From positions 806,001 to 870,000 of the forward strand of contig OY253678.1 in NCBI GenBank assembly GCA_958009085.1: 64,000 nucleotides of DNA, given 5' to 3'. This document shows, one piece after another, positions 7,701 to 27,400 of this stretch. The stretch's first letter is position 1, and every line of letters starts with the position of its first letter. This DNA comes from Protoeuglena noctilucae. Its lineage: Eukaryota. Position numbers and translations under genes: made by a program. Under the pieces are notes generated by a model. The model made no database searches and was not told the origin of the DNA. It saw nothing but the letters and a program-made list of their open reading frames with translations.

Positions 7701-10700
7701 AAGACGCTCGACGACAACCTGGAGAAGATGCAGCGGGGCCTGGCGGGCGACGACGCGGGGGCGGCGCTTGAGGACGACGACGACCCTCTGGCCGCCCTGC
7801 GCCGTAACCAGACGGACACGGGCGGGCAGCGCGAGAGGGGCGCGGAGAAGAAGGGCCAGAAGCCGGTGGTGCGCGAGGGGACGCTGCTGAGCGCCGTGGA
7901 GGCGCTGGCGGAGTGGAAGGGCGTGGGGCTGGAGGAGCTGTGGCGCGAGTACGGCGCGCGGGGCGCGTCCGGGGGCATTACCCTGGAGAAGCTGCAGCGT
8001 CTGCTCGAGGAAGTGGTGCCTCACGCGCCGCTGTCGAGCGAGGTGCGGTACGTGGCGGTGCTGATGGACACGAGCGGGGAGGGCCGGGTGGCGCTGCGGG
8101 AGTTCGAGGAGGTGGCGGAGATGGTGCAGATCCGGGACGGCCACCTGGTGGTGCCGCGGGACGGCGTCAGCGCCGACGAGTTCCTCGTGCTCATGGCCAA
8201 GCGGGCGCGGTCCATGCCCGGGGGCCTGCCCGTGCTATTCGACACGTTCGATCGTGATATGTCCGGGGACATTGACATGCTGGAGGCCACGCAGATGGTC
8301 GGCACCAGTGAGTAAAGCGACGCGGATGGACTCACAGGGTTCATTTTAAGCGAGCATGGCAATTTGCCTTGTTTCTGTACGTTCGCACCTCGCCGTCTCA
8401 CCTCAAAACGCCCCACCCTCACCTGCGACCAGCGCACCCTGCTCTCCCTCGTTGGTTTGCTAGACTAACAAGCGACACTCTCTGCCTCGCTTCCCGCAGT
8501 GCTCCCCGGCCTTCGCGACAAGGAGAAGCGCCGCGTCCTCATCCACCTCATGGGCGGGCAGCAGGGCACGAGCCGCGCGGGGCGCATCACCCTGCGCGAC
8601 CTTGAAGCCCTCCTGCAGCCTTACATGGATCGGCTGGCCAGGGGCAGCGGCATGGAGGGCTTCTCCAGCAGGTGAGGGACACAGGGCTGGTGTAAGGTGG
8701 CATGGTAGCAGGCAAGCATCCGCTGGGCTCGTCGTGCAAGGGCAGTGGCAGCAAACAGCAGCCGAGGACGCTTGGTTGGTTAACCTCTCGTGCCATTCTG
8801 ATGGCGCCCACCTTCAGCAAACTCACTCGCCTCGCTCGTGTCGCAGTGATCGCGGCCTGCGAGCCCAGGAGGCCCTGGGCGAGGTGCTGGGGACGCTGGG
8901 GGACTACGCGCAGCGGGAGCAGCGCCGCGGGGGCCGCAAGGGCGCGCTGGTCGATTTCCTGTGGGCCAAGTTCTGCCGGTCCGGCACGGGCAAGCTCACG
9001 CTCACGGAGCTGGAGAGCATGCTGCGCGCGGCTGGGCGCGAGGCGTTCCGAGACGAGGCGCGGTCGCTGTGGCTGCTGATGGACCTGAACGGGGACAAGG
9101 TCATTTCCAAGGAGGAGTTCCGGGAGGGTATCGGGGCCGCGCAGGTGCTGATGCGGCGCGGGGGCGGCGGGGAGCGCGGGGGCGCGGATGACGATAATGC
9201 GGGGCAGCTGCCCAAGGGCCTGCTGCTGCGGCTGGCGAGGGCGGCTAAGGAGCGCGGGGGCGTGTCGAGACTTATGGAGGTGAGGGCGGGTCTCTGGGAC
9301 CATTGCGCGCCTGCCTCGCAGCGGGGAGATAAGTGTTGGCCCTCACCTGGCCCGTACTGCCCCAACCACCCCTCGCTCTGTCTCTCTCTCACCACTCCCT
9401 GTGCTGCATCTCTCGACACCACCTTGTCCACCCCACGCCTGTCTCTACACCACCCCGCCCACTCCTCCCTCGTAACATCGCAGGAGTTTGACGTCAACCA
9501 CAATGGCGTCCTAGAGTCCTCCGAGCTCGCGCGGCTGTTCCGGCGCATCATGCCCGGCCTCCGCGACGACGAGGTCCGCGTCCTGCTGCTGCGACTGGGC
9601 GCCCTGGATCCCTCCGGGCGGGGCCGCGTGGACGTCCACGAACTGCGACAGGCGTTGGAGCCGTACCTGGAGGGCGCGGAGGCCACGAGCGGGGACCTGT
9701 TTAAGATGGTGGACGAGTACCTGCGGTCCACGGGAGAGGCCTTCCAGGTGCATGTGATTGTGGCGACAGCAGCGCTTGGTCAGGAGCGACGCATGTCGCC
9801 ACGCCCGCCGACGCATCTGGTGCCTGTCCCTCTCCGCAGACGATGTGGCAGCGATACGAAGCGCAGTACAATGGGTCCAGTGCGGCGGGGCTCCGGCGGG
9901 ACGCGCTGGCTACGATGCTCCGGGAGGTGGCCCAGGGTCTGTCGCGCAGCCGGGGGCGGGCGGTGCGCATCAGCGAGGCCCAGATCGACTACGTCTGGAA
10001 GGTGAGATGGAGATGGCAGGCAATTCTGCCTGGCCGTATTGTTGCTCGCGCTCGATGCGATTGTTGATGCCGTGTTGACAGTGACCGCATCAGGCTGGCC
10101 GATCCATCCCCCCTGACCATTTCTCCTTTGCCCCCAGATCCTCGACATCAACGGCGACGGGCGCGTGCAGATGGACGAGTTCCTGCAGGTCTACCAGTAC
10201 GCCACGCAGACGGGGAGGGGCCTGGTGAGTCGCGGCAGCGATGAGGCCATTTGAGATGAGCAGACGAACTGGCAGAGCAAGCAACATCCAACCTTTCGGT
10301 CGCCAATCGACGACTGCTCTTCTGACCCCGCCTTATCCTCTTGACACAGTCGCAAACGTGCTGTGCTATCCTGCTATCCCCCCAGGCATTCAAGGACCGT
10401 GTGACGGTCGAGGACGTGCTGCAGCGCATCGCGCAGACGCTCAAGGATGCACGCCAGATCGCCACGCTGTACAAGGCGTATGACAAAGACGGCGACGGGA
10501 CCCTGGGCCCGCGGGAGCTGGCCAAGCTGTTCCAGGACTCAGTCCCGGGCATCACGCCTGAGGAGCTGCAAGTGCTGCTGCTGCACCTGGGCAACCTCGA
10601 CGCCTCCCGCGACGGCCAGGTGTCGGTGGCGGAGATAACGCAGGCGCTCGGGCCCTACTTCGCGGCGGCCGCCGCCACGCCTCACGCCGCCCACGCGGCG

Positions 10701-13382
10701 CAGCAGGGACCGGCGGACCCCCGCAAGACGCGGCTGGTGCAGGGGCTGGCCAGTGTGCCCCGGGAGACGCTCATCGACTGCTTCCGGTGAGAGGGGCGGG
10801 TTGGATTTCAAGTAAAGCGTAAGGCGTCCTGTTTCCAAAGTTTTGACTGCTTCACCGACACGCAAGCCATGATATGATGCGCCGGCGGTCATATGCACAC
10901 ATCCGTCCACCATGCCAGGCTCCCTCTGCTTGACTGCTTAATCCCTCTCTCTCCTCCCAGGCGCCTGGATATGCGCGGCCACGGTCTGGTCCGCGCCGAC
11001 GTGAATGAGCTGGTGCGGATGTTGCTCCCGGGGGTGCCGGTTGACGAGGGCAAGGTGCGATATCTGTCGGTGGTGCTGGACCTGGACGGCGACGGCAGGA
11101 TCACGCAGAGGGAGCTTCTGGAGGTCCTCGACATGGCGCACAGGCTGGGATCCGACATGGTGCTCAGGTGAGGCCGGGGCTGGGGGTGTATTTGACGGTG
11201 GTTGTCAATGGCCAGGGCTGGGTGCATTCATGACCCACAGCAACCAGCCGTCAAGTGCGGCGAGCTGACCACCCGCTCCTCCATCACTATGCCACCTCTC
11301 GCCCCAATTGGCCCGCCTGCAGGGACAACGTGACGGTGCGGGACGTGCTGCAGCGTTTGGGGACCAAGGTCGGGAGCCTGGAGCGGGCCAAGGAGCTCTT
11401 CTATCAGTTCGACCGCAACAAGAGCGGCACGCTGGACGGGCAGGAGCTGGCGCGGTTGTTCCGGTTCGCCCTCCCGGCCCTGACCACTCGCGACGTGCAG
11501 ATGCTGCTCTTGGCCCTCCAGAACCTCGACGCCGACGGCAACGGCCTCGTGTCCTTCGCCGAGTTCATCGACGCCGTGGCGCCTTACCTCCCCGACCGCC
11601 ACGCGGCCCCGGCCGTCGCGGCCGTGCAGGCCCACGCCTACAGCCGCCCGGGGTCCCCGGCGGTGCAGGGCGGGGCGCACGCACACGCGCACGCGGCATC
11701 GCCGCACCACGCGGCGTACGGGGGCTACCCTCCCGCGCAGGGCCACCCGACCGTGGTGCCCCCGAGCCCGGCGGGGCGCCCCGGCAGCGCGCACGGCTCT
11801 GTGCACGGTGGCGCGGGGGCGTCACCGCGTGAGGTGGACTTCTTCGGTCGCCTGGAGTCCCATTTGCTGGGCCGGCGGCAGGAGCTGGACGACCTCTGGA
11901 AGAAGTACGACCGCACCGGGCGCGGGCTCGACCGGGTCACGCTGGCGGCGCTGGTGCGGGAGGTGGTGCCCGAGATGGAGCTGAGTCAGGAGCAGCTGCG
12001 GCTGCTGGCGTGCATGCTGGACATCGACGGGGACGGACAGATCACCAAGCAGGAGCTGCTGGACAACTTCACGATGATGAACAAGATGGGCAAGAAGCTG
12101 GTCGTGACGGACGACGTGAGTGCGGTCCCTGACGCCCGCGATCCCCGTGCTGTGTCTGTACAGACTAGATAGAACAGCCTTTGTTCTATCTTAAGCTTTT
12201 GCGCATTTGTGCAGACCCTCCGTTACATCTCAAGCTCTCTCACTTCTCATGACACCTCATCACAACCCTCCTCGCACACGCAGGGCCTCACGGGCCACCA
12301 GCTCATGGTGCGGCTGGCGACGCTGCTCCAGAGCCCCGAGGCCGTGGCGGTGGCGTTCAAGAAATACGACAAGGACGGCACGGGGTTCCTGGACGCCTCC
12401 GAGGTGCTCCAGATGGTGTCGGACGCCTTCCCAGGGGCCACGGCCGACGAGAAGCGTGCGCTGCTGTACCACGTGGTGGCCTACGACCTCAATATGGACG
12501 GCTTCATCTCCCTCGACGAGCTCCAGCGCGCCCTGGCGCCCTACTTCGGGACGGTCGCGCAGGGCCCGGCCACTGCGCACGGCCACGGGACCCAGGGGGC
12601 GCAGGCGGCGCAGGGCTACGGGGCGCAGGCGCCCTCGGGCAGCGCGAGCTTCCGCCTGCTGGACAAAGTCGTGCACACGGTGCGGGCCAACCCGAACGTG
12701 CTGAGCAGCGCAGCCATGGGGCGCGGGTGGAACGGCCTGGTCCCGAGCAGCCACTACCACGTGATGCTGGCGGACGCGCTGCCGATGCTGAGCCCGGCCG
12801 AGGCGGCGCTGCTGGGGGCCGTGATGCGTCTCGAGATCCGCACCGAGGATGGCCGCGCGCCCATGACGGGTGCCTCGGCGACCAAGGTGTCCACGCATTT
12901 GGAGAAAGCCTTGACGGCGGCCCAGCTCCTGCTGACCCCCTCGCGGTGCCAGGCGCTCCTGGACTTCAAGACGTGGGCGGGGAGGAACGGGGAGAACTTG
13001 CTGGCCAAGTGAGCGGCCGCGCGCATGCCGGGCTTGGGCAGCTGAGGTGGCATCAGCACGACAAGTAGACTTATCGCTGTGTGTTTCGTCCCCGCAGCGT
13101 CCACCACCTGACGCAGGGGCAGGTGCACGCCGAGCTCCCGATGGAGTACCTGGAGAGGATCGTGGAAATGTGGGGCCAGCACACGCCGCCCATGCACCGG
13201 TCGTCCGTGCTCCTGTGGCTGCACGACATCGACCTGACAGGTAAGCCAGCCTTTGATTGGGTGTGTTGAACGATGCGCCAGCCACTGGCTCGCTCCTCAA
13301 CCGACATGTGCAATGCGGTGCAGGGATGATGAAAATGCGGGCATCGCATATCGTCGAGAGGCTCGCCCACGTCGTGCACTGA
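1789..13382 (+). CDS. Giant multi-exon protein: N-terminal coiled-coil and Arg/Ser-rich low-complexity half, C-terminal array of about 20 EF-hands (Ca2+-binding)
   Basis: Exons can be chained by splice signals from MARYDAPPPW (1789) to ...HIVERLAHVVH* (TGA 13380-13382). EF loops seen include DRDMSGDIDMLE, DLNGDKVISKEE, DVNHNGVLESSE, DINGDGRVQMDE, DKDGDGTLGPRE, DLDGDGRITQRE, DRNKSGTLDGQE, DADGNGLVSFAE, DIDGDGQITKQE, DKDGTGFLDASE and DLNMDGFISLDE. The EF part (7631-13382) is secure; its fusion with 1789-7400 is inferred. Confidence 0.7.
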
Positions 13383-13513
13383 ACGAGAGTCTCTTGCCCC
13401 AATAGCATCATCTGGCCAAATGGATTAGCCTATCTGTGTGCAAGCAGCTACATTTGCGGAGTAGTTGTGAAACAGATGTCTTGCATGGGCGTATCTGGCA
13501 TCCTGGACCCTTC

Positions 13514-14082
13514 AACAGCTGAACGACCCCGCATCCCACACCATACCGCACGACCCTGCGCTGCCCACCGCGATCAGCACCGCAGACCCCGCGACTCGTC
13601 GCATCGACCGGCAGACACTCCAGAGGCCCCCTGCGGGCGCCGGGTGGCTCCCGCTCCGCGCTGGCACAGCGTGCTTCGCCGGACAGCGTCACGTGACACG
13701 GGGTGAGGACGGCGGCCTTCCGTAGAAGCGCGCGGCGCGCGGCGGGGCCCGGAAAGGGAGGGGCGGACTCGGCGCCCGGGCCGGCGCTCTGACGCCGCGC
13801 CAAGCCCCGCGCGGTCGTGCGTGGGTCGGATTTACCGCGATGAGAGCACCGGGCGAGCCGATGTGCGCCAGGGACGCCCGGCCTGCGCCGCCGCGGGGCG
13901 CGGTCGAGTACTGTGCTCTCGGGGATTGCCGCGGCATGCGGGGTGCTGGGGGCCTGCAGCCTCGGCAACGCGCTCATGAGAGCTGAGAGAGGAGCGGAGA
14001 TCCTGCGGGGAGCCGCAAGCAATCTTCTATGCGACTGGAGCACAGTGACGGTTTCTCCGCTGGGATTCCCGCCAGCTCGGAC
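13514..14082 (+). repeat. 569-bp direct repeat, copy 1 (upstream of NYN-vWA-alpha-kinase gene A)
   Basis: Runs from aacagctgaacgacccc to gccagctcggac and appears identical to 19531-20099 (offset 6017). The ORF track gives identical translations over both copies. Confidence 0.95.
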
Positions 14083-14192
14083 AGCGGACGCCGCTGGCTT
14101 ACCTGCTCTGGCTTTGCTGGTTTAGAGGACGAGACGCTTTCCGCACCTCAATGTCTGCAGGCGACGCTCAGTGGCGAGCGGCACCAGGACTC

Positions 14193-17100
14193 ATGGCTCC
14201 CGGGCAGGTGGAGAGAGCGCCCTGGAGAGGCCGAGGCCGAGGCCGCGGCAGGGGGCGGAACGGCGGCCATGACATGCCGTTCCCGCCCTCTCCCGGGTCC
14301 CCGCCGCCGCCCCCGCCAGGGCCTCCGCCCCCGCCCCCGCCAAGTCGGCCCTTCATACGCGACAAGCAGAACTGGCCAGACAGGACGTTTGGCCCGGAGA
14401 AGATGGTGCTCTGGAAGTCGAACAACAACGAGCAGAAATGGCCGGCGCCGGAGGGCGCCCTGGCCGGCAACGTCACCATTTTTTGGGACATGGACAACGT
14501 GAGCTGGGCCGCGCACACATGGCATGGCATGGCATGCTTAGCCCAGCACCTGCATGGGGCCTCACCTTATCCTTGCTTGCCCTGCGCAGGTCCCGCTGTA
14601 CGCCCCCTACGACAGGAGCGGCCTCTTTCCACACGACCAGTTCGACGTGCTGCTTAGGGTGTTTGGCAAGGACCTGGGCCACAAGGTGCACATCCGGATG
14701 AACGTGGTGATTGCGGAGGACAAATTCAACTGGTACCCGGCAGACATCAGGAGGCGCATTAAGTCCGTGCACAGCCAGGTCACGTTTCAGTGTGTCGCGG
14801 GCCGCTTCAACGGCGGCAAGAGAGACAGTGAGAGCGAGCTTAGAGGCAGTGACGTCAGTGCGTGCTTCATGGGACTGTTCGTGGGCTCAAACCTGCAGCT
14901 CCGTCTGCGCGCAGTCTCGGACAACGTGATTAAGCCCCTCATCGCCGATGCTGTGCACAAAGGACACCGTGGGGACGCCATCGTTCTGATCAGCGGCGAC
15001 GGAGACTTCGTGCCAGAGGTCCGGGCGGCCAAGAACGCCGGTACGGGGATGGCCTTGCAGGGTTAGAGCAGGGTCGCGCAGATCCATGAGTGGTGTCACA
15101 GCGATGGCCTGACCCACCCCACCACCTTGGTTGCCATGCAGGGATCAACGTGTACCTGCTGACGCCGGAAGTCGTGTCCACCAGCACAGAGCTCTCCCAC
15201 CTCGCGCACTGGCAGCAGGTGCGCATGCATGCCCCACACGCCCACATCGCTGTGCCGTGCTGGCTGCCAGTTTGGCTTGTTGGCATACACCGCTTCACCC
15301 ACTGCACCAAGATCAGTCTTTGGTCGCATCGTGCCGCAGTACTTCAACCGCTTCATGGAGCTCCACCGGCTGGACTATTTTCCGCACCTGAAGCAGAAGT
15401 ACGACGCACTGAAGCAGCAGCCCAAGCCGCCGATGAGACCCAAGCCGGGCAAGATGACGCCCGAGCAGATCGAGCAAGCGAAGCCCATGGGGGAGATCCT
15501 CGAGAAGGGCGAACTGGAGGCGCACTTGAAGGAAGAACAGGAGCAGACGCAGGTGCGGATGGGCAGCTTGATCGGTGGCGGCACATCCCAGCACGGCGAC
15601 AGAGTGTGCTGACAACTGAAGCTCACTTATGCCCTAAATTGCATTGCCTGCAGCTCGACATCCTGATCATGATCGACGGAACCAACAGCATGCAGCCCTA
15701 CATCGACAGGTGGGGAGCGCGGCATCCGGTCTGTGTTCGGTGCACGTATTGCAGCCTAGCCTCGCTGGCCTCCTTGACGTCGATGGCCTTGAAACTGGCC
15801 TCGGACCCGCATTGATGTGCATTGGGTGTTGCAGAGCACCTGGTTGCATGGATGCCCGCAGCATCAAGGACGCTATCAGTTCCGAGCTCATCAAGGAGAT
15901 CCAGAGGAGGTACTCCAAGGCGGCTGGGAATGTGCGGTACGGTGTCCTGGTCTACCGCGACATCGTGCGCGGACCGGGGGATCCTCAGCAGTTCGAGCGC
16001 CTGGACTTCACGACAGACCCGGAAAAGGTCGTCGAGTTCCTGAGCAACGTCAAGGCCATGGGTGGCCGTGATTACACGGAGGACGTCACGGGCGCGATGC
16101 TGGAGGCCGTAAACATGGGATGGCAGCGCAAGAACAAGGTGGGCACAAGAGCAAGCACTGATGAGCGCGCGAGGCACGTGGAGCATTTGCTGGCATGGAT
16201 GAGCATCTGCAGGCGCGATCTGGTCTGCCCGGCCCCCACACTCTGGCAAGAGAGGGCGTCGGCATGCATGTGTGACCTTGCCCGGCTATGCGTGATGCAC
16301 TGGACGTGGTCGCCCCCACGCAGGCAATCTTCCACGTCCTGGACGCGCCTTCGCATGGCCAAGAAATGCATGACCTGGGGGAGCGGAACGATGACTACCT
16401 CCGCAGCCCGCCCGAGGGCCGCGACCGGCCGGAGGTGGAGGCGCGGAGGGCCATGCAGAAGCTGCACAGCCTGGGGTTGCAGCGGTACATGCTGTGCCAC
16501 CTGGAGAAGGGTCATTGTGCCAAGATGGCGGCCAAGTTCCAGGAGATCCTGCGCGAGGACGGCATCGACAAGACCGAAGAGGAGAGCAACTGGCTCGCAG
16601 AGACGGAGGTCAAATATGAAGGTCAGGCTGCCGGATGCGCATGGCCTGGTTGGCATGTGTGCTGCATGGCAGTTATAAGCGAAGTTGTTGTGGCACCTGC
16701 AGCTGGGGCGCCGTCCAAGCTGCGCCTGGCGGACCTGGTGGGCAAGCTCATCGGGGAGACCGTGGGCACCATCTCTGCGAGCTTGTCCCGGGCGTCCCTG
16801 GCGAGGAAGCTGCCGCACACGAGGGTGAGGGCCAAGGTCCACGAGCCCGATGTGGAGATGGCGCCGGTGGCGGAGGGCGAGGAGGGCGACGGCAGCACCA
16901 GCGACACCGCGTCAGTCGAGGAGGTCCAGAAGATGCTTGAGGAGTGGAGCCTGGAGGGCAAGACCGAGAAGGCATGGGAAGCCACGCTGGCCAAGTACAA
17001 GAAAGCGTTCAAAGTCATGAGGAAAAACCAAGCGGCAACGCAGGTCGAGATCACGATGCCTCCGGACTACCAGGGCGACCTGAAGAGGCTGCTTGAGGAC

Positions 17101-18312
17101 GTCGATGACCACTTCGTTGCCCACGGGACGAAGCCTACGGACCCCTACCGGAACTACCTCATCCGCCATGCTCCTCCGCCGGGCTTCGAGGGAACGCACA
17201 AGGTCGCCTTCCTGGCCCAGGAGCAGATCAAGAACAACAACCGCAGGGTCGAGCGCAAGGCAGCCGATGGCACAATGGTCGTCTACACCAACAGCGTGGA
17301 CTACCCCATCGTGGTCCTGAAGGAGTACAACGTGCGTGCTTTCACAGAGCTCAGCTGCGATGTTGTGTTTGGGCAGTTGGTGCCCAAACCTTGAGTGGCT
17401 TGATCTGTCATGGCATAACTGCATTACAATGTGCCTGCTCCCCACCTGCAGACTGCTGGCAAGGGTCAGAATACCGCTCAGAGATATAAAAAGGAGGTAC
17501 AAGCGAACGGGGTCGCCGCCTTGCTAGCCAGCCTCTTCAATGAGCGCGTCAAGGAGGTGGGAGGCGGACAGTGGGGCTGTCAGGCGTGTGCACTTGGCAC
17601 GGCATCGAGGCCCAGAGTGTGACACATGTTCTTTGTGGACCATCTGCAGGTTGAGAGCAAGCTGTCCGCCCCGCCCAAGACCCTGAGCTACCTGGAGACA
17701 TGCCTGGTTTCGTACCAAGGCATTCCGTCAGGGACGGTGTCTGGCACTGCCCAAAGGGAGCCATCGACCATGTTCAGATTGCAGGAGCCGCTCGTGATGG
17801 GCAACTTCGTCAAGTGGTCGTCCAATGCCGGTGAGGCCCTGGCGCAGTGCGTGCGCTGCATCAGCAGGGTGCAGTGATCTGAGGGGCACGCAAAGGTCTC
17901 GGGTCTAAGCGTGGTGCCTGTCACAGCTCAAGCGATCCTGGCCCTCTCCTGGTGTCTCACAGGGTACGTGAACATGGAGGTCTGGGACGAGGTCGCGCAC
18001 GCCTTCACGCACTGGACTTACCACGCCACGGAGGGCCGGCTGATGGTGGCGGACATCCAGGGCGTGCGCGTGGGCAAGACGGCCATCAAGCTGACGGACC
18101 CCCAGATCCACTGCGTGCACCCCACGCTGCTGACGGATGACGCGAGCAGCTTCGGGAGGGTGGGCATGCTCAGGTTCTTCCAGAGCCACCGGTGCGGGGA
18201 GACGTGCAAGGCGCTGGGACTCAATGACTCCCTGGACGAGCTGGACAAGCTGCGTGCGGAGCTCGGGTCGCTTGGAGAGGAGGCGGCCGTCATCGGGGAT
18301 GCCCAGGCTTGA
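14193..18312 (+). CDS. NYN (PIN-like/LabA-DUF88) ribonuclease + vWA + alpha-kinase (eEF2K/MHCK family) fusion protein, paralog A
   Basis: N-terminal [10 protein letters not shown] and poly-Pro. NYN motifs IFWDMDNV, KRDISD (across intron 14828-14914) and IVLISGDGDF. vWA motifs LDILIMIDGTNSM, YGVLVYRD, GGRDYTEDV and HVLDAPSHG. Alpha-kinase motifs VVLKEY, EPLVMGNFVKWSSNAGYV, AFTHWTY..TEGRLMVADIQGV, LTDPQIH and FFQSHRCGETC. The start codon is uncertain and may lie in the upstream repeat. Confidence 0.85.
17782..18115 (+). repeat. Near-identical tract shared with 23247-23580 (kinase core, including a whole intron)
   Basis: 334 bp with 3 mismatches seen (18018, 18069, 18072), all synonymous. Intron 17831-17962 is identical to 23296-23427. 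Confidence 0.9.
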
Positions 18313-19077
18313 GCCAGAGTGGCGAGGTAACACTTCGAGGGCCAGAGCGGCGTTTCCCTTGCAACGAGCGGTCAGCCCCCTTTTGGGTTTCTTGCACAGC
18401 TCGCAGCCTGGACCCTGATTAGCGAGCTGCACTTGAAAGGCACCCGGTTGTGACCGAGGGTGGACTGCCGCAGCAGAAAAGGGTGCCTGAGCTCTCAGGC
18501 CCCCCGTGAACCGGCCCTCAAAGAATTGGCTGATGATAACCTGGACCAGCGCGCGGTGGAACTCACCCAGATAAATCGGCAAGGCATTGACTGCATTGGA
18601 AGGTGTGCGCAAGCGATCGCAAGGGGTGCACCCTTGCCCACAGCAGCTCAGTATGGCTGCTTGAGACCACCCTGGCCCAGCTCGCAGTGTCAATGACCAT
18701 GAACGTGCCGTGGGTGTGATCAGCCGTCTGAGGTCTGACTGAGGCTGAGTCAGCCTGACGCTGCGAGAGCCTAGTTAAAAAGGCCGGCAATGTCGGCAGC
18801 TGTTGCATTGGACGACCACAGATTGACCCACACAGCGTCCGAGCTCATTTACCAACGCTTCACGAACGCAAGCGGTGAGTTTGCTGACCAGGGCTGCCTG
18901 CTCCGCAGTTGGGCCGGATGTGGTCGTCTCGGGGACCCAGAGACGCTGCGCCTGTGCACCCACGCGACGATACTTGCGATGTGGCGGCAGATGGGGGGGA
19001 AGGTTCATCAGATGGCCGTCGTGAGGGGCATCGCCCTGTGTGCTTCATGTTTGTGCTTCAACGCCCGCAGCGCCACG

Positions 19078-19254
19078 ATGCCGCCCAAGGGCTCATCGGG
19101 AGGGGGAGGCTACAAATGCGCAACCGATAACAAGTCCTTCGGCAGCTACCCCGCCGCCGTGCAGCATCAGCATGCCATGGGCCACGGGCCCATCCAAAAG
19201 GGCGGCGGCGGCGGCGGCGGCGGTGCTGGCGGGGGCGGGAAGGGCGGGAAATGA
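19078..19254 (+). CDS. 58-aa Gly/Lys-rich microprotein with one variant C2H2-like zinc finger
   Basis: [58 protein letters not shown], with spacing C-x2-D-x3-F-x5-A-x2-H-x5-H. Preceded by a GTGAGG...CGCAG intron-like segment (19021-19070). An upstream in-frame ATG at 18790 is possible. Confidence 0.6.
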   Translation: MPPKGSSGGGGYKCATDNKSFGSYPAAVQHQHAMGHGPIQKGGGGGGGGAGGGGKGGK

Positions 19255-19530
19255 GACTGCAACGAGGGCCCCCGACGCATTGCTGCGCGTCATGAGCTGC
19301 GCGTCGTCATGAGCTCGCTGTGCCATGCGGAGCTTGCATGCGACCCTTGCGCCCTGGCCTTGCCCACGCGCCGGCATGAATGACAGGCATTGCCGGGCTC
19401 GATCGTCAAAGCCGTGGTAGCAGCAGTTCTCGCAGGCAGCAGTGAACTTGTGCTCCGATAGAGCCTTGCTTGGGCAGCAATTGTGCTTCAAACAGTTCTT
19501 GCACGCGCACACCTGGCATCGGGACTCTTT

Positions 19531-20099
19531 AACAGCTGAACGACCCCGCATCCCACACCATACCGCACGACCCTGCGCTGCCCACCGCGATCAGCACCGC
19601 AGACCCCGCGACTCGTCGCATCGACCGGCAGACACTCCAGAGGCCCCCTGCGGGCGCCGGGTGGCTCCCGCTCCGCGCTGGCACAGCGTGCTTCGCCGGA
19701 CAGCGTCACGTGACACGGGGTGAGGACGGCGGCCTTCCGTAGAAGCGCGCGGCGCGCGGCGGGGCCCGGAAAGGGAGGGGCGGACTCGGCGCCCGGGCCG
19801 GCGCTCTGACGCCGCGCCAAGCCCCGCGCGGTCGTGCGTGGGTCGGATTTACCGCGATGAGAGCACCGGGCGAGCCGATGTGCGCCAGGGACGCCCGGCC
19901 TGCGCCGCCGCGGGGCGCGGTCGAGTACTGTGCTCTCGGGGATTGCCGCGGCATGCGGGGTGCTGGGGGCCTGCAGCCTCGGCAACGCGCTCATGAGAGC
20001 TGAGAGAGGAGCGGAGATCCTGCGGGGAGCCGCAAGCAATCTTCTATGCGACTGGAGCACAGTGACGGTTTCTCCGCTGGGATTCCCGCCAGCTCGGAC
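19531..20099 (+). repeat. 569-bp direct repeat, copy 2 (upstream / 5' end of paralog B)
   Basis: Identical to 13514-14082 by visual comparison. Confidence 0.95.
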
Positions 20100-23000
20100 C
20101 GCGATTCATCATGCAACGTTGGCCCCTGCAGCGACGCAGGAGAACGGACGACAGGGCGGACGTCCTCAGGGAAGGCCAGCGAACGTCATGCCCGGGAAGG
20201 TGCAACGTGACGACCAGATCTGGCTGAGCCCGACCTTCAGCGAGAGCCAGCTGGAGGAGTGGACGCGACGCTCGTCGCACTTGGTCCCCTGCCCCGAGGG
20301 GGCGCTTACGGGAACAAGTGTCAGCATTTTCTGGGACCTGGACTCTGTTCCCCTGTTCGCCCCATACGACCTCCCCAACCTGCGCCCCCACGACCAGTTC
20401 GACCTAATGCTGAAGGTCTTTGGTGTCGACACGGGCGCCCAGGACGTCAGCATGATGGCCGTGGTGTCGGAGAAGGCTTTCCTTTTGTACGACTCGGACA
20501 CCCAGGCGCGCCTCACCAGGAAGCACATCGAGGTGGAGCTGGTCAAGATGGCAGGGGGTGCCAACTATGAGAGTGAGTGCTGTGAAAGTTTACTGCAACT
20601 GCGAGAGCCCCTTGGAGCATGCGCATCATGGGCCCATCTCATCCCTGCCCCAGGCACGGAGAGCAAGCTCGGGGCGGAGATCAGCACGGCGGTGGCGCGA
20701 GGGAGGAAGGGCGACACGATCGTGCTCATCAGCGGCGACAACGAGCTGGAGCAGGAGGTGCGGCGGGCCAAGGTCCGTTCCATGAACGTGCTGCTCCTGG
20801 CACCTGGGAAGCGAGACATGAGCGGGGACGACCTGTACCTGCTCGCCCACTGGGCGGCGCGGTTCAAGGTGTTTGTGCAGCTGCACAAGGCCAAGCACGT
20901 GCCCAAGCCCGTCGTGGACAAACTCAAGAAAAAGAACAAGGCCATGAACAAGGGAAAGGAGAAGGTCGTGACGTTCAAGAGGCCGTCACCAAAGGACATC
21001 GAGCGCGCACAGGCGCTTGCTCACCAGAAGGACGAGCGGGAGCAGACGGAGGTGTGAGGGTGCACGTGACTGGGTGCCTGTCCCACCTGGGTGGACCTCA
21101 GCCTGCCGTGACGTGGCTACGTTGACCCCTACCGCAGTTGGACTTGCTTATCATCATCGACGGCACCGCGAGCATGCAGCGATACATCGACAAGTGAGTG
21201 GGTCGCTGTGTTGTGCCCTGCCTGCACCACCGGCCAAAGGGCTCCACTGCTCTCTGGCACTCTTGACCCGGAACCAGAAACAGCCTGACAGGCCAGCTAG
21301 GGTGTGAGTGAGTCCGTGAGCGTGCATCTTGTTCTCAGAGTCAAGGAGGCCATCGCCAACGAGGTGGTTACTGAAGTCGTTCGCCGCTACCCATCCGCCG
21401 CGGGCCGGGTCCGGTACGGTGTGCTGATCTACCGCGACTTTTGCGACAAGGACAGGCAGTTCGAGCGGCTGGACTTCACCACGGACGTCAGCCGGGTCGT
21501 CGCGTTCCTGGACACGGTCAAGGCGACCGGGGGCGGTGACCCGGCCGAGGACGTCGTGGGCGCCATGATGGAGGCCCTCCGCATGGATTGGAAGCAGCGC
21601 AACAAGGTAAGCGCCAATGTGGCTGCCGCAGGTATCTTCGTGACTACATGCCGCCAAGCCCCGTGGGCCACTCCCCTACATGTCTCGTACAGACTACGCT
21701 CCAGCCTAAAGCACCGTCCCTGATGGCGCGCAGGCCATCTTCCACATCCTGGACGCCCCTGCCCACGGGCAGTGCATGCACGACATGGGGATGAAGCACG
21801 ACGACTTCCACAGCAAGCCACCGCCCGGCCGTAAGGAGCCCGAGGAGGAGGCCAAGGAGGCTCTGCGCGCTCTCTACGACATTGGCGTGCACCGTTACGT
21901 CATGTGCCACCTGGACCTAAAGCACTGCACCAAGATGGCGCGCACGCTGCATGGGCTGCTCCGGCAGGAGGGCATCCGCGTCACGCAGCAGGGCTCCAAG
22001 TGGCTCGTGGAGCACGAGGTCACGAAGGACCCGACCGGTGAGTTCCATGGCGTGGCTACCGCATGACAGTCGAGGCTGCTAGCGTGGCTAGTACGAGCCA
22101 ACCCGTCGCCTGGCGCATGCGTCACCCACAGGCTCGGCCCATGCCGAGCCCTCCCAGCTTCGCCTGGCGGACCTGGTGGGCAAGCTGATTGGCGCGACCT
22201 TGAGCACGCTGTCGGCGGCGCTGTCGAGCATGACGCTCGCCCGGATGGTGGGGTCCATGCCGCCCCTGGAGCGAGACTACGAGCCCGACATCGAGATGCC
22301 CACGTGGGAGGAGGTGGATGAGGAGGAGGACGAGGCAGACGACCCCAAGGCGGGCCGAGAGGGCCTCGCACCCATCGGCCCCATCCCTCACGAGATTGAG
22401 ATCGAGCTGGAGGAGTGGGACATGTCGGCCAAGGCCAAGCAGCGGTGGTCGCACCGGCTGATGGCGTACAAAGACGTCTTCAAGCGCATGAGGAGGCAGC
22501 AGCCGGCGACGCGCGTCGAGGTGATCCTGCCCCCCGACTACGGCCGGGACCTGGAGAGCCTGCTGCGCGACGTCGACAGGGGGATCATCGCCGAGGGCAA
22601 GCTGCCGGACAAGCCCTACCGCGACTACCTCGTCCGCCCCAACCCGCCCCCCGGGTTCCGCGGCTCCAACAAGGTGGCCTTCCTGGCCCAGGAGCTGGCG
22701 AAGGGCGACCGCGTGGAGCACGTGGGTGCGGACGGGACCAAGACGCACTCGTACAAGGGAGATTACCCCATCGTGGTGCTCAAGGAGTACCTGGTGAGAT
22801 GCAGCATTCATGGACTCAGATCACACCTGTGCAGCTGGGGTATAATGTGACTGATGGATGATGCAGCTTCGTGGGGGAGCTGCAAGGGGCCTGACTGATG
22901 CTATCCATGCAGGCCATCGGGAGGGGGATGAACAGCGAGGAGCGCTACATGCGGGAGCTTCAGGCAGCCGGGGTGGCCATGACGCTGGCCAACATCTTCA

Positions 23001-23858
23001 ACGACCGCGTCGCACAGGTGAGCGCACAGCGCACGAGAGTGCGAGTACCCGGAATGGCGGCGGCTGGGGTAGGGTCGCAGCCAGCAACAGCTGTCTATGG
23101 TGCATGTGCAGGTCAAGGATAAGCTGAGCGCCGAACCCAAGCGGCTTTCGTACCTGCCCACGTGCCTGGTCAAGTACCAGAGCTTCGCTTCCGGCCACGT
23201 CAACGGCGTCAGCGTGGGGACCAAGCCCATCACCATCTTCCGCCTCCAGGAGCCGCTCGTGATGGGCAACTTCGTCAAGTGGTCGTCCAATGCCGGTGAG
23301 GCCCTGGCGCAGTGCGTGCGCTGCATCAGCAGGGTGCAGTGATCTGAGGGGCACGCAAAGGTCTCGGGTCTAAGCGTGGTGCCTGTCACAGCTCAAGCGA
23401 TCCTGGCCCTCTCCTGGTGTCTCACAGGGTACGTGAACATGGAGGTCTGGGACGAGGTCGCGCACGCCTTCACGCACTGGACCTACCACGCCACGGAGGG
23501 CCGGCTGATGGTGGCGGACATCCAGGGCGTGCGTGTCGGCAAGACGGCCATCAAGCTGACGGACCCCCAGATCCACTGCGCCGTGGACCCCACGCTTTTG
23601 ACGACGACCAAGGAGAGCAGCCTGGGCAGGGTGGGCATGCTGAAGTTCTTCCAGAGCCACCGGTGCGGGGAGACGTGCAAGGCGCTGGGGCTGAGCGGGG
23701 CCCTGGAGGAGCTGGATAAGCTGCACAGCGTCTGCATGGACATCTCGTCGGACATCAACAGCGTTGGTGATGACGCGGACGGTGCTGGCGACGACCGGGA
23801 CGGCACTGAGTCGCCGGGGGCATCTGAGGAGTCGAGCGAGGACAACGTGTTGGTGTAA
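19993..23858 (+). CDS. NYN-like (degenerate) + vWA + alpha-kinase fusion protein, paralog B
   Basis: NYN-like IFWDLDSV and IVLISGDNEL. vWA LDLLIIIDGTASM, YGVLIYRD, GGGDPAEDV and HILDAPAHG. Kinase IVVLKEY, AFTHWTYHATEGRLMVADIQGV, LTDPQIH and FFQSHRCGETC. Acidic tail, TAA at 23856-23858. Start is ATG 19993 or 20188 (uncertain). Confidence 0.85.
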
Positions 23859-24407
23859 ACCTGGCGCAGATGGCAGAGCTGGCACAGTTGAGCTGAGGAA
23901 ATGTGTCGGCATGGCTGGGCGTGGCTTGGCGAGACTCCTTTTAGCTTAGTGGTGGTCGTACGACGCGGTGTGTCGTGGCCTTTTGATTATGTGGCTCGTG
24001 CGCAGTCCGTGACGTTCAATCATTGCCGGCGCGTGGATGGATGGAAAAGGAAAGCGCGTGGTGGGAAAGAAAAGGACAACCAATGCGCGGCAGCGGCGAC
24101 AGGCGCGGAATCAAACGCAAACGAGCCAGGCGCGCTAACGGCACGCAGCCCTGATACGACGTGACAGCAGAATGCTGGCACCGGTGCTGCCTCAGTGTAC
24201 GCAGCGGACGCAGTGATGACCCGGGCACTCCTACAACCGACGTTGCAAGCCCCGGGCTCTCTGCTCATGCCCAAACCCCGATCCCCGACCTAACAGGGCG
24301 TTTCCGAGCAAACCCCGACCCTCCAATCCCACCCCAACTGGCAGGGCGCTTCAAGGCAAACCGCAACCCCAGAACCCCAACCCCACCCCAAGCTGACAGG
24401 CCGCCTC

Positions 24408-27400
24408 TCATGCGAACCCGAACCCCTCCGACCCCTCGTGGATTGCCTTGAGGAGCCTCTCCCGCAGCTGCTCCTTGCTGTCGTACTCGATGAGGTCGAG
24501 CTGGTTGAAGCACGTGTGTGCCTGGGGGAGGCGGTCCTTGTGGCCATACGCCTTCTGGATCTGGAAGCGCTGCGGCCCTCCCACGCCCTGCAGGCCCTTG
24601 AAACCCTCCAGGGGCACCTGAGGGGGAGAACATGGTGAAAGGGAGATCGAGGTCGGGGGAAGGTTGGTGGGGGCGGGAGGGTCGTGGCTAAGCGACGCTA
24701 ACGAGGCAGCTGCCCCCCACCCACTCATGCCATGCCCATAGCTGCACAGCTGCGCCCCACCCACCCCCAGTCCCGCCACACCCCAAAGCTGCACATCTGC
24801 ACCCCACGCAGTCCCGCCACACCCCACAGCCGCACATCTGCACCGCACCCACTCGTGCCACGACCCCTCCCACCTTGGACGTCCTCGTGACGAACTGCAC
24901 CCCACCTCATCTATATGCACATCCACTCCCGTCATGCTGCCACGTCCTCTCTCACCTTGGACGTCCCCGTGACAAACTGCACGAGCCTGGCGCGGTCCTC
25001 GCGGTCCATCACCCGCAGAATCTCCCAGAACCACTGAATGACGGGGGTGGCCGCGGAGAAGCCCGAGTACTCCGTGTTGGCCCTCAGGTCGTCGATGTCG
25101 ATGTCGGGAAGGCCAGAGATGAGGAGCTCCAGCTCTCCCTCATTGAAAACGGAGACCAGCTCCCGGGGCACCACCTCCCAGAACCCGTCCTGGAAGGCCT
25201 GGATCTGGTCCTTGATCGAGTTGGTCATGATGTGCTTGGCCATCTGGGGCGGATAGGAGAGGGGGTATGAGGGATGGGGCGGGGTGCGTGTGGCGGGGGG
25301 TGCAGCTGCGATGGTCACTGCAGTGCCGTTCCCGATTACCACCCTGCATGCGCGCCCACCACATCCCTGCATGCTACGCATGTCATGCTCACCAAGCTGA
25401 CGCACTCTATGCCCCCCACATCCCTGCACGCATGTCGCTCTCACCACGCTGACGTACTCTACGCCCACCACCCACACCCCTACACGCTATGCATGTGCCT
25501 CTCACCAGGCTGACGTACTCGACGACGTTCTGGTTGGTGACCTGGATGTCCTTGCCCCCCGGCTTGAGCTCGATGACCTCCTTGCGACCAAAGTAGTCCT
25601 GCTCTGCCGTGAAGGTGAGGTCCACCACGTCGGTGATGTCGTTCTCCAGCATCCACTGCGGGAGGAGGGAGAGGGGTGATGGGGATGAGAAAGAGGGGAC
25701 GGGGAGGGGCAGGCTGTGGGGCGAGGTGCAAGCGTATGGGACAGGTGGTAGGGTTTTCAGGGTTGCTGTCATTGAGCGGCAGCTGATGGCCGTGCCAAGC
25801 CATTGACCATGACTGTGTTCACCTTGAGGTTCTTGTAATACTCTGCTATTACACCAATAGCAATAGTCACCTTGAGGTTCTTGTAGTACTCTGGCTCGAC
25901 TGCCTCGACGTCCTCGAAGGAGATGGGCATGCCGATGATGTGCTTGTAGAAGGAGCGCGTGAAGTGCGCGTCCAGCAGCTGGCCGTCCCACAGGGCCTTG
26001 GCTGCGGGAGAGGGGCAGGGGGACGGGTGAGGGAGGGAGGGAGAGTGTGACTGAGAAAGTGAGGGACGGAGTCAGTGATGAGTGAATGAGTGAGTGAGTG
26101 AGGGAGGGAGGGAGGGAGATGTGAGGGACTGAGTGGATAAGTGAGGGAGGGAGGGAGTGAATGAGCAAGGCGGTGCATGAAATGGAATTGCAAAGGCAAA
26201 GCAGCATGCGACACGCCCGTCGCCGCCCTCGCTGCGTCACCCATGCTCATGCTTTCACCATCAAAGCCTCATCCGCAAGCATCTGCAAGCACAACGCACC
26301 CACGATGCGCCCGCAGAACTTGAAGTAGTCGAGGTGCGTGGTCCCCCGCGATGGGTCGTTCTGGACCATCGAATTGGGGTTGGGCTGGAAGGTGGTGCCG
26401 CCCTCAGGGACGTTCACGAAGAGCGAATATGCCGGGTTGAACATCTCCCGCGCCATCACCGTGTACCACTCGCGGGTGAGGCCGCCTGCGTCAATGCCCT
26501 CTTCTCCCACGAACGAGACGTGGAGCTTGCCGCGGAACTGCGCGCCGTCCTTCATGCGCAGCTGCGGGGGGTGAGGGATGGGGGTGGGTGGGGTGGGTGG
26601 ACGAGGGTGGGTGCGAGTCGGAAGGGTGGGTGCGGGTTGCGTGTGGTGCTGTTGGCATGGGGCTTGGGGAAGGGTGGCATGCGTCGCAACGCGTGGTTGC
26701 GCGTGCATGCATGCGGGTGCATATGCAAGCATGTAATTGTGTGTGTGTGTGCAAACTCCACCCCGTCTTCCCTCACCTGCTGGAAGGAGTCCTCGAATGC
26801 CCGGGCGCGGCTGAGTGCGATGCGGAGGGATGCGCCGTACGAGGTGCGGGGGGTGAGCTGGCGTGTCTTGTAGGTGAAGAAGGCGCGCTTGTTGTCGAAG
26901 TCCACCAGGCGAGGGAACTTGAGGAGGGGCGACAGGGCCCGGTCCAGCAGGGCCACGTCCTGCCGAAGGAAGGCGTTGAGGATGCGGCGGTGTCGCTCTG
27001 CCAGGGACGCGAGGTCGGCCTCCTGCCGAGAGGGCGGCAGCGAGAGGGACAGCGGCGCGGCCAGGCGGCTGCCGGGGCGCTCGAGTAACGCCCCGATCTG
27101 CGCCGCCGTGCCGTGCTGGGAGAGCGCGGGGCTGGGGCGGTCCAGGGCGACGCCGGCGGACGACGCTGCAGTGGGGTGGGGTGGGGGTGAGGTGGGTGAG
27201 ACATGAGCGGGGAGAGTAGCATAGAGGTGTTGCGCACAGAGCGCCCCAAGCAACATCAGCGAGTCTCCACAGCCGGCAAATGCCCTCGCCATGCTAACAG
27301 CTGCCCTCGCCAAGCCAGCGAGCGCCAACCTCACCCGTGCCCGCGCCCATCGTGACGCCCTGCATCTGCCGCCGCGAGGCCTTGCGCTCGTGCAGCCCGC

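Follow-up and report, generated by a model that had tools for sequence, protein, structure and literature searches.

A tandem pair of predicted NYN–vWA–alpha-kinase genes in Protoeuglena noctilucae

A fusion gene transcribed in one frame, and its paralog

We analysed a 64,000-nucleotide stretch of the Protoeuglena noctilucae genome (GenBank assembly GCA_958009085.1, contig OY253678.1, positions 806,001 to 870,000 of the forward strand; hereafter the window, numbered from its first letter), in which two adjacent genes on the same strand had been proposed, from the letters alone, each to encode an NYN domain, a vWA domain and an alpha-kinase in one spliced frame. The two same-strand paralogs are indeed there, gene 1 at 14193 or 14403 to 18312 and gene 2 at 20188–23861. 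In gene 1, a single mRNA carries a single reading frame across NYN, vWA and alpha-kinase; for gene 2 the same frame is given by a gene model, with the listed RNA joints lying in its kinase part. The architecture is real, transcribed and catalogued, though uncharacterised, and it is not a demonstrated system: its anatomy is settled, its function inferred. With a probability of about one half, we read the pair as tandem paralogs of a green-algal branch of VwkA-type vWA-alpha-kinases, a branch that gained an N-terminal MARF1-like NYN domain and so would couple a docking and kinase module to an endoribonuclease.

The window is GC-rich (62–73% GC), and its reading frames are interrupted by short, eukaryote-like GT..AG introns. 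A search with a gene 1 exon retrieved a public protein of 881 aa (P0001) with 100% identity, which could be placed letter for letter on 12 exons from 14403 to 18309 of the forward strand. The contig from which P0001 derives is 3,175 nt long, too short to include the introns of the 3,910-nt genomic span, and is therefore a spliced transcript. Exon boundaries, mapped by whole codons, are accurate to ±2 nt.

14193..18312, forward strand: gene 1 coding region, from the exact mapping of P0001; stop codon at 18310–18312
14403–14501, 14593–14826, 14917–15042, 15144–15218, 15340–15552 and 15654–15707, forward strand: gene 1 exons 1–6
15860–16138, 16324–16620, 16702–17331, 17452–17559, 17653–17832 and 17965–18309, forward strand: gene 1 exons 7–12

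Four marine metatranscriptome runs, all from one single study, contained 21–44% of the sampled words of this region, and four further runs ("organism A") contained 97%. We compared positions 13000–24500 with the contigs of RNA runs X1, X3 and X4 and of X5, a presumably genomic run that is possibly the window's own source. Every one of the 11 coding joints in gene 1 was present in X1 RNA contigs, each with GT..AG introns and at P0001 exon ends; none of the 11 was present in X5. Eight of these joints (14498/14590 to 16619/16701) share a depth of 29.9 on one 1,676-nt X1 contig, the listed pieces of which cover 14590–16996, that is, the NYN exons through the vWA and into the linker. For gene 1, this satisfies the transcript check that the original prediction had asked for. 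The X4 RNA also has joints 17331/17452 and 17554/17648.

Domains and predicted folds of gene 1

All three domains are present in gene 1 by sequence and by predicted fold.

14472..15206, forward strand: gene 1 NYN domain (MARF1-like, PIN fold), P0001 residues 24–175, interrupted by 3 introns; Pfam NYN 43.8 bits
15654..16560, forward strand: gene 1 vWA domain, about residues 251–440
17257..18207, forward strand: gene 1 alpha-kinase, Pfam residues 646–847, with the fold match beginning at about residue 570

The Pfam scan of the spliced protein that the original prediction had suggested placed all three families above their cut-offs on P0001: Alpha_kinase (PF02816) at 128.4 bits against 21.3, NYN (PF01936) against a cut-off of 24.2, and VWA_4 (PF25106) at a marginal 27.9 bits against 27 over residues 255–375, with VWA_2 (23.7 bits) and VWA (15.8 bits) both under theirs. 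Among solved alpha-kinases, P0001 matched 4kuj best by sequence (1.1e-18), followed by eEF2K, ALPK1, MHCK-A and TRPM7. No RRM or LOTUS/OST-HTH family was detected on P0001 by Pfam even at E ≤ 1, and the Pfam scan likewise detected neither calmodulin-binding nor SEL1-repeat parts, nor a eukaryotic protein-kinase fold or KEN ribonuclease domain.

An AlphaFold2 model of P0001, built on a 42-sequence alignment (mean pLDDT 77.9, pTM 0.68), was compared with about 48,000 representative solved chains. Its model range 570–854 matched the alpha-kinase MHCK-A (3lkm_A, Z 22.6, root-mean-square deviation (rmsd) 2.3 over 218 residues), with 4kuj, eEF2K and TRPM7 close behind, and a Foldseek comparison of the same predicted model with the PDB gave 4kuj at E 4e-15. 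Range 244–486 matched the Rossmann-like vWA fold, with the integrin beta-8 I-like domain first (8tcf_B, Z 18.2) and many vWA chains next. For the NYN part (range 21–187), mouse MARF1 NYN (5yaa_A) came first of the NYN chains among the listed matches to the predicted fold (Z 15.1, rmsd 2.8, 145 of 150 residues, 15% identity); predicted secondary structure and the MARF1 match describe a PIN-like fold that lacks the helical insert after strand 2. The Foldseek rows shown contained kinase and vWA chains only, these domains swamping the NYN part, and a search of residues 1–185 in the ESM Atlas met NYN clusters at 0.88–0.89, below the 0.9 line and to be taken as a lead only.

Conservation of the putative active sites

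Motif residues of the kinase, of the metal ion-dependent adhesion site (MIDAS) of the vWA domain and, in gene 1, of the putative NYN catalytic site are conserved at the level of aligned sequence. The MIDAS-like DGTxS motif that had been picked out earlier was confirmed: 42 vWA-alpha-kinase sequences show no variation at D258, T260 or S262, nor at D339, E342, D343, P370, H372 and G373 of the same domain. The canonical D-x-S-x-S does not occur, Thr replacing the first Ser in 42 of 42 members, and D-x-T-x-S is a family-wide MIDAS variant that could still bind metal. In the kinase, K667, H782, D796, Q798, G799, D811 and P812 are invariant in the same 42 sequences, and H841, C843 and C847 are conserved in at least 90%; from the TRPM7 and MHCK-A literature we take these to provide the catalytic Lys, the D-x-Q-G loop, the metal-binding D-P and the zinc ligands (H/H/C/C). 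Both paralogs have all of the listed MIDAS/vWA and kinase residues.

The structural report on MARF1 gives four aspartates as essential, D178 (following strand 1), D215 (following strand 2), D246 (where helix 3 begins) and D272 (following strand 4), and describes N181 and S270 as conserved (PMC6217404). Gene 1 has D29, N32, E75/D76, D114 and S138-G-D140-G-D142-F (numbers counted by hand) at places matching these residues. The shared motif, made up of D..N, an acidic residue following strand 2, a D that opens helix 3, and S-G-D-x-D-F, is kept at every position in gene 1 and in the relatives P0004, P0006 and P0007. In gene 2, an acidic residue stands at all four places (D, E, E, D).

Distribution and phylogeny

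The NYN–vWA–alpha-kinase architecture is rare. An exhaustive search without a profile against 1.84 billion representatives yielded 5,436 matches at E ≤ 0.001, among them 75 at E ≤ 1e-30. Pfam was run on 138 of the top 150; the other 12 are fragments of 108–267 aa and include unspliced frames from the window itself. Alpha_kinase was found in 136 of the 138 (the exceptions being P0008 and an NYN fragment, P0045), NYN at E ≤ 0.001 in three (P0006, P0007 and P0008), and other domains in a few: CCCH zinc fingers in 6, FYVE in 3, SAM in 3 and RING in 1. P0004, from a separate search, was a fourth NYN match, at 42.5 bits, with P0006 at 31.9 and P0007 at 29.8. P0003, placed with these by alignment, is N-terminally short, and its locus (L002) encodes an NYN part 390 nt ahead of its reading frame, in the same orientation (tblastn 2e-26). 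The metagenome loci L001–L004 are single-gene contigs of 4–6 kb; L052 and L054 gave short kinase matches only.

The named carriers of the NYN domain are Pedinophyceae sp. YPF-701 and Dunaliella salina. The former has two paralogs, both records giving a contig of 2,046,420 nt. In Dunaliella, the locus DUNSADRAFT_1113 is annotated just as "alpha-kinase family domain-containing", and its protein P0012 aligned over the NYN part, where Pfam NYN was absent at E ≤ 0.001; the six Dunaliella sequences fall into one 90% cluster on one 66-kb contig and may be isoforms. Pedinophyceae and Dunaliella have full-length single proteins, as does the P0006 cluster of 11 members. The fusion is kept in distant chlorophyte lineages with its catalytic residues intact.

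A tree was computed from 41 rows (the 2 models from the window, 6 members of the clade and a hand-picked set of 33 vWA-alpha-kinases) and 560 columns filled in at least 60% of rows, with the NYN part excluded (LG+G4, quick search); P0008, with its apparently frameshifted C-terminus, short fragments and 15 other proteins were omitted. The 8 NYN-bearing rows of the 41 fell on one side of a branch with SH-aLRT support of 99, and sister pairs were formed by the window genes, with a support of 98, and by the Pedinophyceae genes, with one of 100. When the converted kinase C-lobe (see below) was left out (16 rows, 7 NYN-bearing), the clade retained a support of 99 and the window pair one of 80. A single origin of the NYN fusion followed by lineage-specific duplications would fit these trees, the root of which is not established.

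Two proteins with other layouts were also seen. P0008, an environmental relative in a cluster of 19 members all 1025 aa long, has about 220 extra N-terminal residues before the NYN domain and a Gly/Arg-rich C-terminus that resembles an out-of-frame translation in the kinase's place, with no Pfam Alpha_kinase. P0005 (1346 aa) has RRM domains (PF00076) and a C-terminal alpha-kinase, with no vWA.

Gene 2, probable gene conversion and strain differences

Gene 2 was modelled with gene 1 as a guide. The model has 9 exons, 8 GT..AG introns and no internal stop, and aligned end to end with gene 1 and its relatives.

20188..23861, forward strand: gene 2 coding region (model, 931 aa); stop codon at 23859–23861
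20188–20572, 20654–21051, 21138–21193, 21339–21606 and 21734–22037, forward strand: gene 2 exons 1–5 (paralog-guided GT..AG model)
22132–22793, 22913–23017, 23112–23295 and 23428–23858, forward strand: gene 2 exons 6–9 (same model)
20320–20840, 21138–21970 and 22725–23680, forward strand: approximate NYN, vWA and kinase domains of gene 2 (same model)

Among the RNA joints listed for gene 2, 22792/22912 and 23014/23109 in the kinase part were found in runs X1 and X4, and an X1 contig enters the linker exon (22131–22792) from upstream. No X1, X3 or X4 contig over the compared region was seen to bridge the NYN part to the vWA part, and intron 20573–20653 was without RNA support, the X3 pieces there being unspliced. 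Scanned exon by exon as unspliced frames, gene 2 gave Alpha_kinase at 80.3 bits from its last exon alone; its remaining domain content is suggested mainly by the alignment to gene 1.

The paralogs are 54% identical as proteins, in agreement with the local duplication and strong divergence proposed earlier, and the identity is very uneven: 45% in the NYN part, 57% in the vWA, 47% in the linker, 55% in the kinase N-lobe and 91% in the kinase C-lobe. At the DNA level, two tracts are homogenised, ~13500–14085 with 19517–20105 and ~17765–18250 with 23230–23720, the latter including an entire intron; identity per 100-nt block is 82–100% within the tracts versus 40–65% in neighbouring blocks and elsewhere. 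The 5' tract has only these two copies in the window (100%/99.7% identity).

13505..14085, forward strand: duplicated 5' tract, copy 1, comprising the gene 1 non-coding first exon (end ~13702) and the start of its intron in the 5' untranslated region (5'UTR)
19522..20099, forward strand: duplicated 5' tract, copy 2, upstream of gene 2; 99.7% identical to 13505–14082
17765..18250, forward strand: gene-conversion tract, copy 1, covering kinase C-lobe exons and the whole of intron 17833–17964
23230..23720, forward strand: gene-conversion tract, copy 2, by DNA identity to 17765–18250

X5 contigs over both tracts had approximately 1.5–2 times the depth of their neighbours, as expected of two collapsed copies. 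We read this pattern as an old duplication in which gene conversion has probably homogenised the promoter/5'UTR and the kinase C-lobe in recent times, and the shared 5' exon and promoter tract suggests that the two genes may be co-regulated.

Differences between strains were seen in two places. The related-strain fragment P0002 has no differences from the window frame 16276–17394 (P0155) over its first 276 residues, which include a read-through intron, and then 14 differences in the next 71 residues, the sharp boundary lying at the start of the kinase N-lobe; the switch has the appearance of a recombination event between strains. (P0155 and P0190 are unspliced frames from the window itself and not independent relatives.) In the acidic linker of gene 1, an X3 RNA contig over 16914–16998 has a 3-nt deletion and 4 base changes within 85 nt, which looks like a variant of a related strain (95–99% class).

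Proposed function and alternative explanations

What the fusion may do we infer from the roles of its domains elsewhere. NYN domains are established mRNA-decay nucleases (MARF1, and also plant DNE1), and alpha-kinases are a small atypical kinase family, some members of which have large physiological roles (eEF2K, TRPM6/7, ALPK1). In the window proteins, the vWA domain would use its metal site to dock onto a partner protein or complex, and the alpha-kinase would phosphorylate either this partner or the protein's own acidic, disordered linker. Phosphorylation would in turn gate or localise the NYN domain, which would cut single-stranded RNA by metal-ion catalysis in the manner of MARF1. In the cytoplasm, mRNA decay or translation would thus come under the control of a signal; the RG repeat at the N-terminus of gene 1 would strengthen RNA binding, and gene 2 may be a weakened or retuned partner. 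We favour a signalling-coupled endoribonuclease because both catalytic centres are conserved across distant algae and because the family occasionally has RNA-binding modules, namely the CCCH fingers and the RRM domains joined to an alpha-kinase in P0005. A fusion with both active sites intact in distant green algae predicts a direct link between phosphorylation signalling and RNA cleavage, and could help to explain what the widespread vWA-alpha-kinase family does.

Several observations weigh against this reading. The link of the wider family to RNA is modest, with CCCH fusions in just 6 of 138 proteins, and the characterised VwkA is associated, according to a 2009 review, with the contractile vacuole and with myosin II rather than with RNA (PMC2827801). 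The VWA_4 match on P0001 exceeds its cut-off by just 0.9 bits, and in gene 2 the NYN fragment (17.1 bits) and VWA_4 (17.5 bits) are both below their cut-offs when scanned as unspliced frames. The NYN part of gene 2 also differs at three positions conserved in the clade (N to S after strand 1, D to E at helix 3, and D-F to E-L after S-G-D), and its nuclease may for this reason be weakened or retuned. The mapping of NYN residues to MARF1 was made through motif and predicted secondary structure, not on a superposed model; the tree was rooted at its midpoint only; and the RNA contigs come from one study and show neither strand, ends nor expression level.

The original prediction took the pair for a sensing or defence module: the vWA would sense a viral or damage ligand, and kinase and RNase together would stop translation and destroy RNA, in the manner of RNase L, IRE1 or abortive infection. 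The strongest hints for defence are the divergence of the tandem copies, with its patchy gene conversion, and the strain mosaic described above (0 differences in 276 residues, then 14 in 71); to these may be added the seemingly lineage-specific duplications here and in Pedinophyceae, and the fact that alpha-kinases include a translation brake (eEF2K) and an innate immune sensor (ALPK1). PADLOC-DB, which covers prokaryotic systems only, gave as its sole match a generic "LabA-like NYN" model (22.7 bits, residues 112–175). Positive evidence for defence was not found. The gene neighbourhood is ordinary and not defence-like, 0 of 40 pattern matches in viral contigs were confirmed as relatives, and gene copies number only one or two where a genome was readable (two here, and two proteins in Pedinophyceae sp. 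YPF-701). Distant chlorophytes have kept the catalytic residues and the fusion itself, ordinary marine metatranscriptomes contain the transcripts (in contigs that carry no expression level), and the protein has no KEN domain and no eukaryotic-type kinase fold. On this balance we consider a shut-off role unlikely; were it true, the genes would represent a new eukaryotic immune effector in ecologically important marine algae. A more specific form, in which the proteins would be convergent counterparts of RNase L and IRE1, with a vWA ligand switching on the alpha-kinase, autophosphorylation freeing the NYN domain, and mRNA or rRNA being degraded and translation shut off during virus attack or acute stress, the diverged copy serving as second sensor or brake, seems to us more doubtful still.

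A different account would make these proteins ordinary VwkA-like signalling kinases whose NYN domain does not cut and serves as a binding or regulatory module, above all in gene 2. The three departures in gene 2 and its NYN fragment under the Pfam cut-off would fit, as would the NYN part of Dunaliella P0012 that Pfam does not recognise, and the available part of the 2017 PIN-superfamily classification lists NYN clusters with variable acidic residues, marked "+/-" (PMC5499597). Against it, gene 1, P0004, P0006 and P0007 retain every motif position and score above the NYN cut-off, and even gene 2 is acidic at all four places; we regard a non-cutting NYN as improbable. That the NYN and vWA-kinase parts are separate neighbouring genes joined by an erroneous gene model would agree with the missing RNA bridge in gene 2 and with colinear unspliced X3 pieces over 20546–21059 and 15410–15668. 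For gene 1 this is refuted by the single contig spanning 8 joints and by P0001, which has the three domains in one 881-aa frame; the full-length single proteins listed above speak against it too, and neither a stop codon nor a start signal lies between the domains in either gene model. We give an artefact hardly any credence, and return to the signalling-coupled endoribonuclease as our preferred reading.

Relation to known systems

Fusions of vWA and alpha-kinase domains were already known, as the original prediction had stated: the 2009 review, in its available part, describes them in Dictyostelium (VwkA) and counts eight such genes in Tetrahymena, and does not contain the words "alga", "plant" or "Chlamydomonas" (PMC2827801). 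The window genes share with VwkA of Dictyostelium discoideum and other protist vWA-alpha-kinases the N-terminal vWA and C-terminal alpha-kinase, the D-x-T-x-S variant of the MIDAS, a D-A-P-x-H-G motif and the kinase catalytic residues, and the NYN-bearing proteins form one branch among them. They differ in the extra N-terminal NYN domain, which is visible to Pfam in 3 of the 138 top representatives. VwkA is linked, in the same part of the review, to myosin II levels and the contractile vacuole (PMC2827801); nothing links the window genes to that role.

With MARF1, the likeness lies in the NYN family (PF01936), the fold (Z 15.1) and the matching acidic, N and S positions. MARF1 combines its NYN with RRM and LOTUS/OST-HTH domains, which are needed for its activity according to the available part of the report (PMC6217404); the window protein is without them, and has instead a vWA and an alpha-kinase, plus the RG-repeat N-terminus in gene 1. 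The related alpha-kinase domain of eEF2 kinase was matched both by sequence (PDB 7shq, 1.9e-11) and by fold (Z 21.6 to 9ocw); eEF2 kinase has neither vWA nor NYN, and its calmodulin-binding and SEL1-repeat parts were not detected in the window protein. The likeness to IRE1 and RNase L drawn in the original prediction is conceptual only, being confined to the idea of combining an RNase with a nucleotide-binding kinase module in a single polypeptide: the kinase is of the alpha type and not a eukaryotic protein kinase, the ribonuclease is an N-terminal NYN/PIN in place of a C-terminal KEN so that the order is reversed, a vWA stands between them, and there is no homology.

The original prediction named no characterised protein with all three domains, and our literature search yielded no such paper: none was found that pairs "NYN domain" with "alpha-kinase", and none with alpha-kinase, NYN and von Willebrand was among the matches listed. 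A search for alpha-kinase with Chlamydomonas, judged by titles only, returned no title on an algal alpha-kinase. The main text of the 2017 PIN-superfamily classification, as far as available, has 0 occurrences of "kinase" or "vWA" (PMC5499597).

The 5' end of gene 1

The original prediction let the pair begin at 13514, which marks the start of the duplicated non-coding 5' tract and not coding sequence. One X1 contig joins 19718 to 14160 (it "goes back 5559"). Position 19718 is equivalent to 13701 in the other copy of the tract (19522–20099 versus 13505–14082), and the simplest reading of the joint is a 458-nt GT..AG intron in the 5'UTR of gene 1, at 13703–14160, with a GT donor and a CAG acceptor. 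On the contigs alone, a true joint from the first exon of gene 2 is a possible alternative.

No ATG lies within 13505–13702, and 14193 is the first ATG past the acceptor of the 5'UTR intron, in frame with gene 1. P0001 itself starts at 14403, and homology to gene 2 and P0004 continues upstream of this first Met, suggesting that gene 1 probably starts at 14193. Starting there would lengthen the protein by 70 residues, among them an RG repeat and a Pro-rich run; RG-repeat or RG-rich N-termini are found in gene 1 and in Pedinophyceae P0007.

Spacer and neighbouring genes

A zinc-finger microgene had been placed between the paralogs.

19078..19254, forward strand: proposed zinc-finger microgene, 58 codons and a stop; not supported as a gene

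We rejected this candidate. Its peptide has a single Cys, in the spacing C-x2-D-x12-H-x5-H, and Pfam matched no family to it at E ≤ 0.01, nor even at E ≤ 10. No X1, X3 or X4 RNA contig lay on 18760–19527, which is no proof of silence. The spacer also holds a G-rich simple repeat at 19194–19239 that reads as a Gly run in one frame.

The neighbours are ordinary nuclear housekeeping genes: EF-hand proteins, a giant HUWE1-like HECT ligase, a PHYLLO-type fusion, Sec3 and an ArfGAP. Two EF-hand genes lie just upstream of gene 1 on the forward strand, at 8464–10005 and 12173–13499, the second with an 83-nt intron (13238–13320) that RNA contigs of X1 and X4 confirm. The HUWE1-like E3 ligase gene (24408–36200, reverse strand), with DUF913, UBM and HECT matches, is directly downstream of gene 2. 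Further on, at 43085–46747 of the forward strand, stands a PHYLLO-type multi-enzyme fusion of the green plant and algal type, with a TPP enzyme and a MenC/enolase-like part; the best named matches of its exon, which mark the source as a green alga with no near named kin among them, are only 43–45% identical and belong to the chlorophytes Parachlorella kessleri and Pedinophyceae sp. YPF-701.

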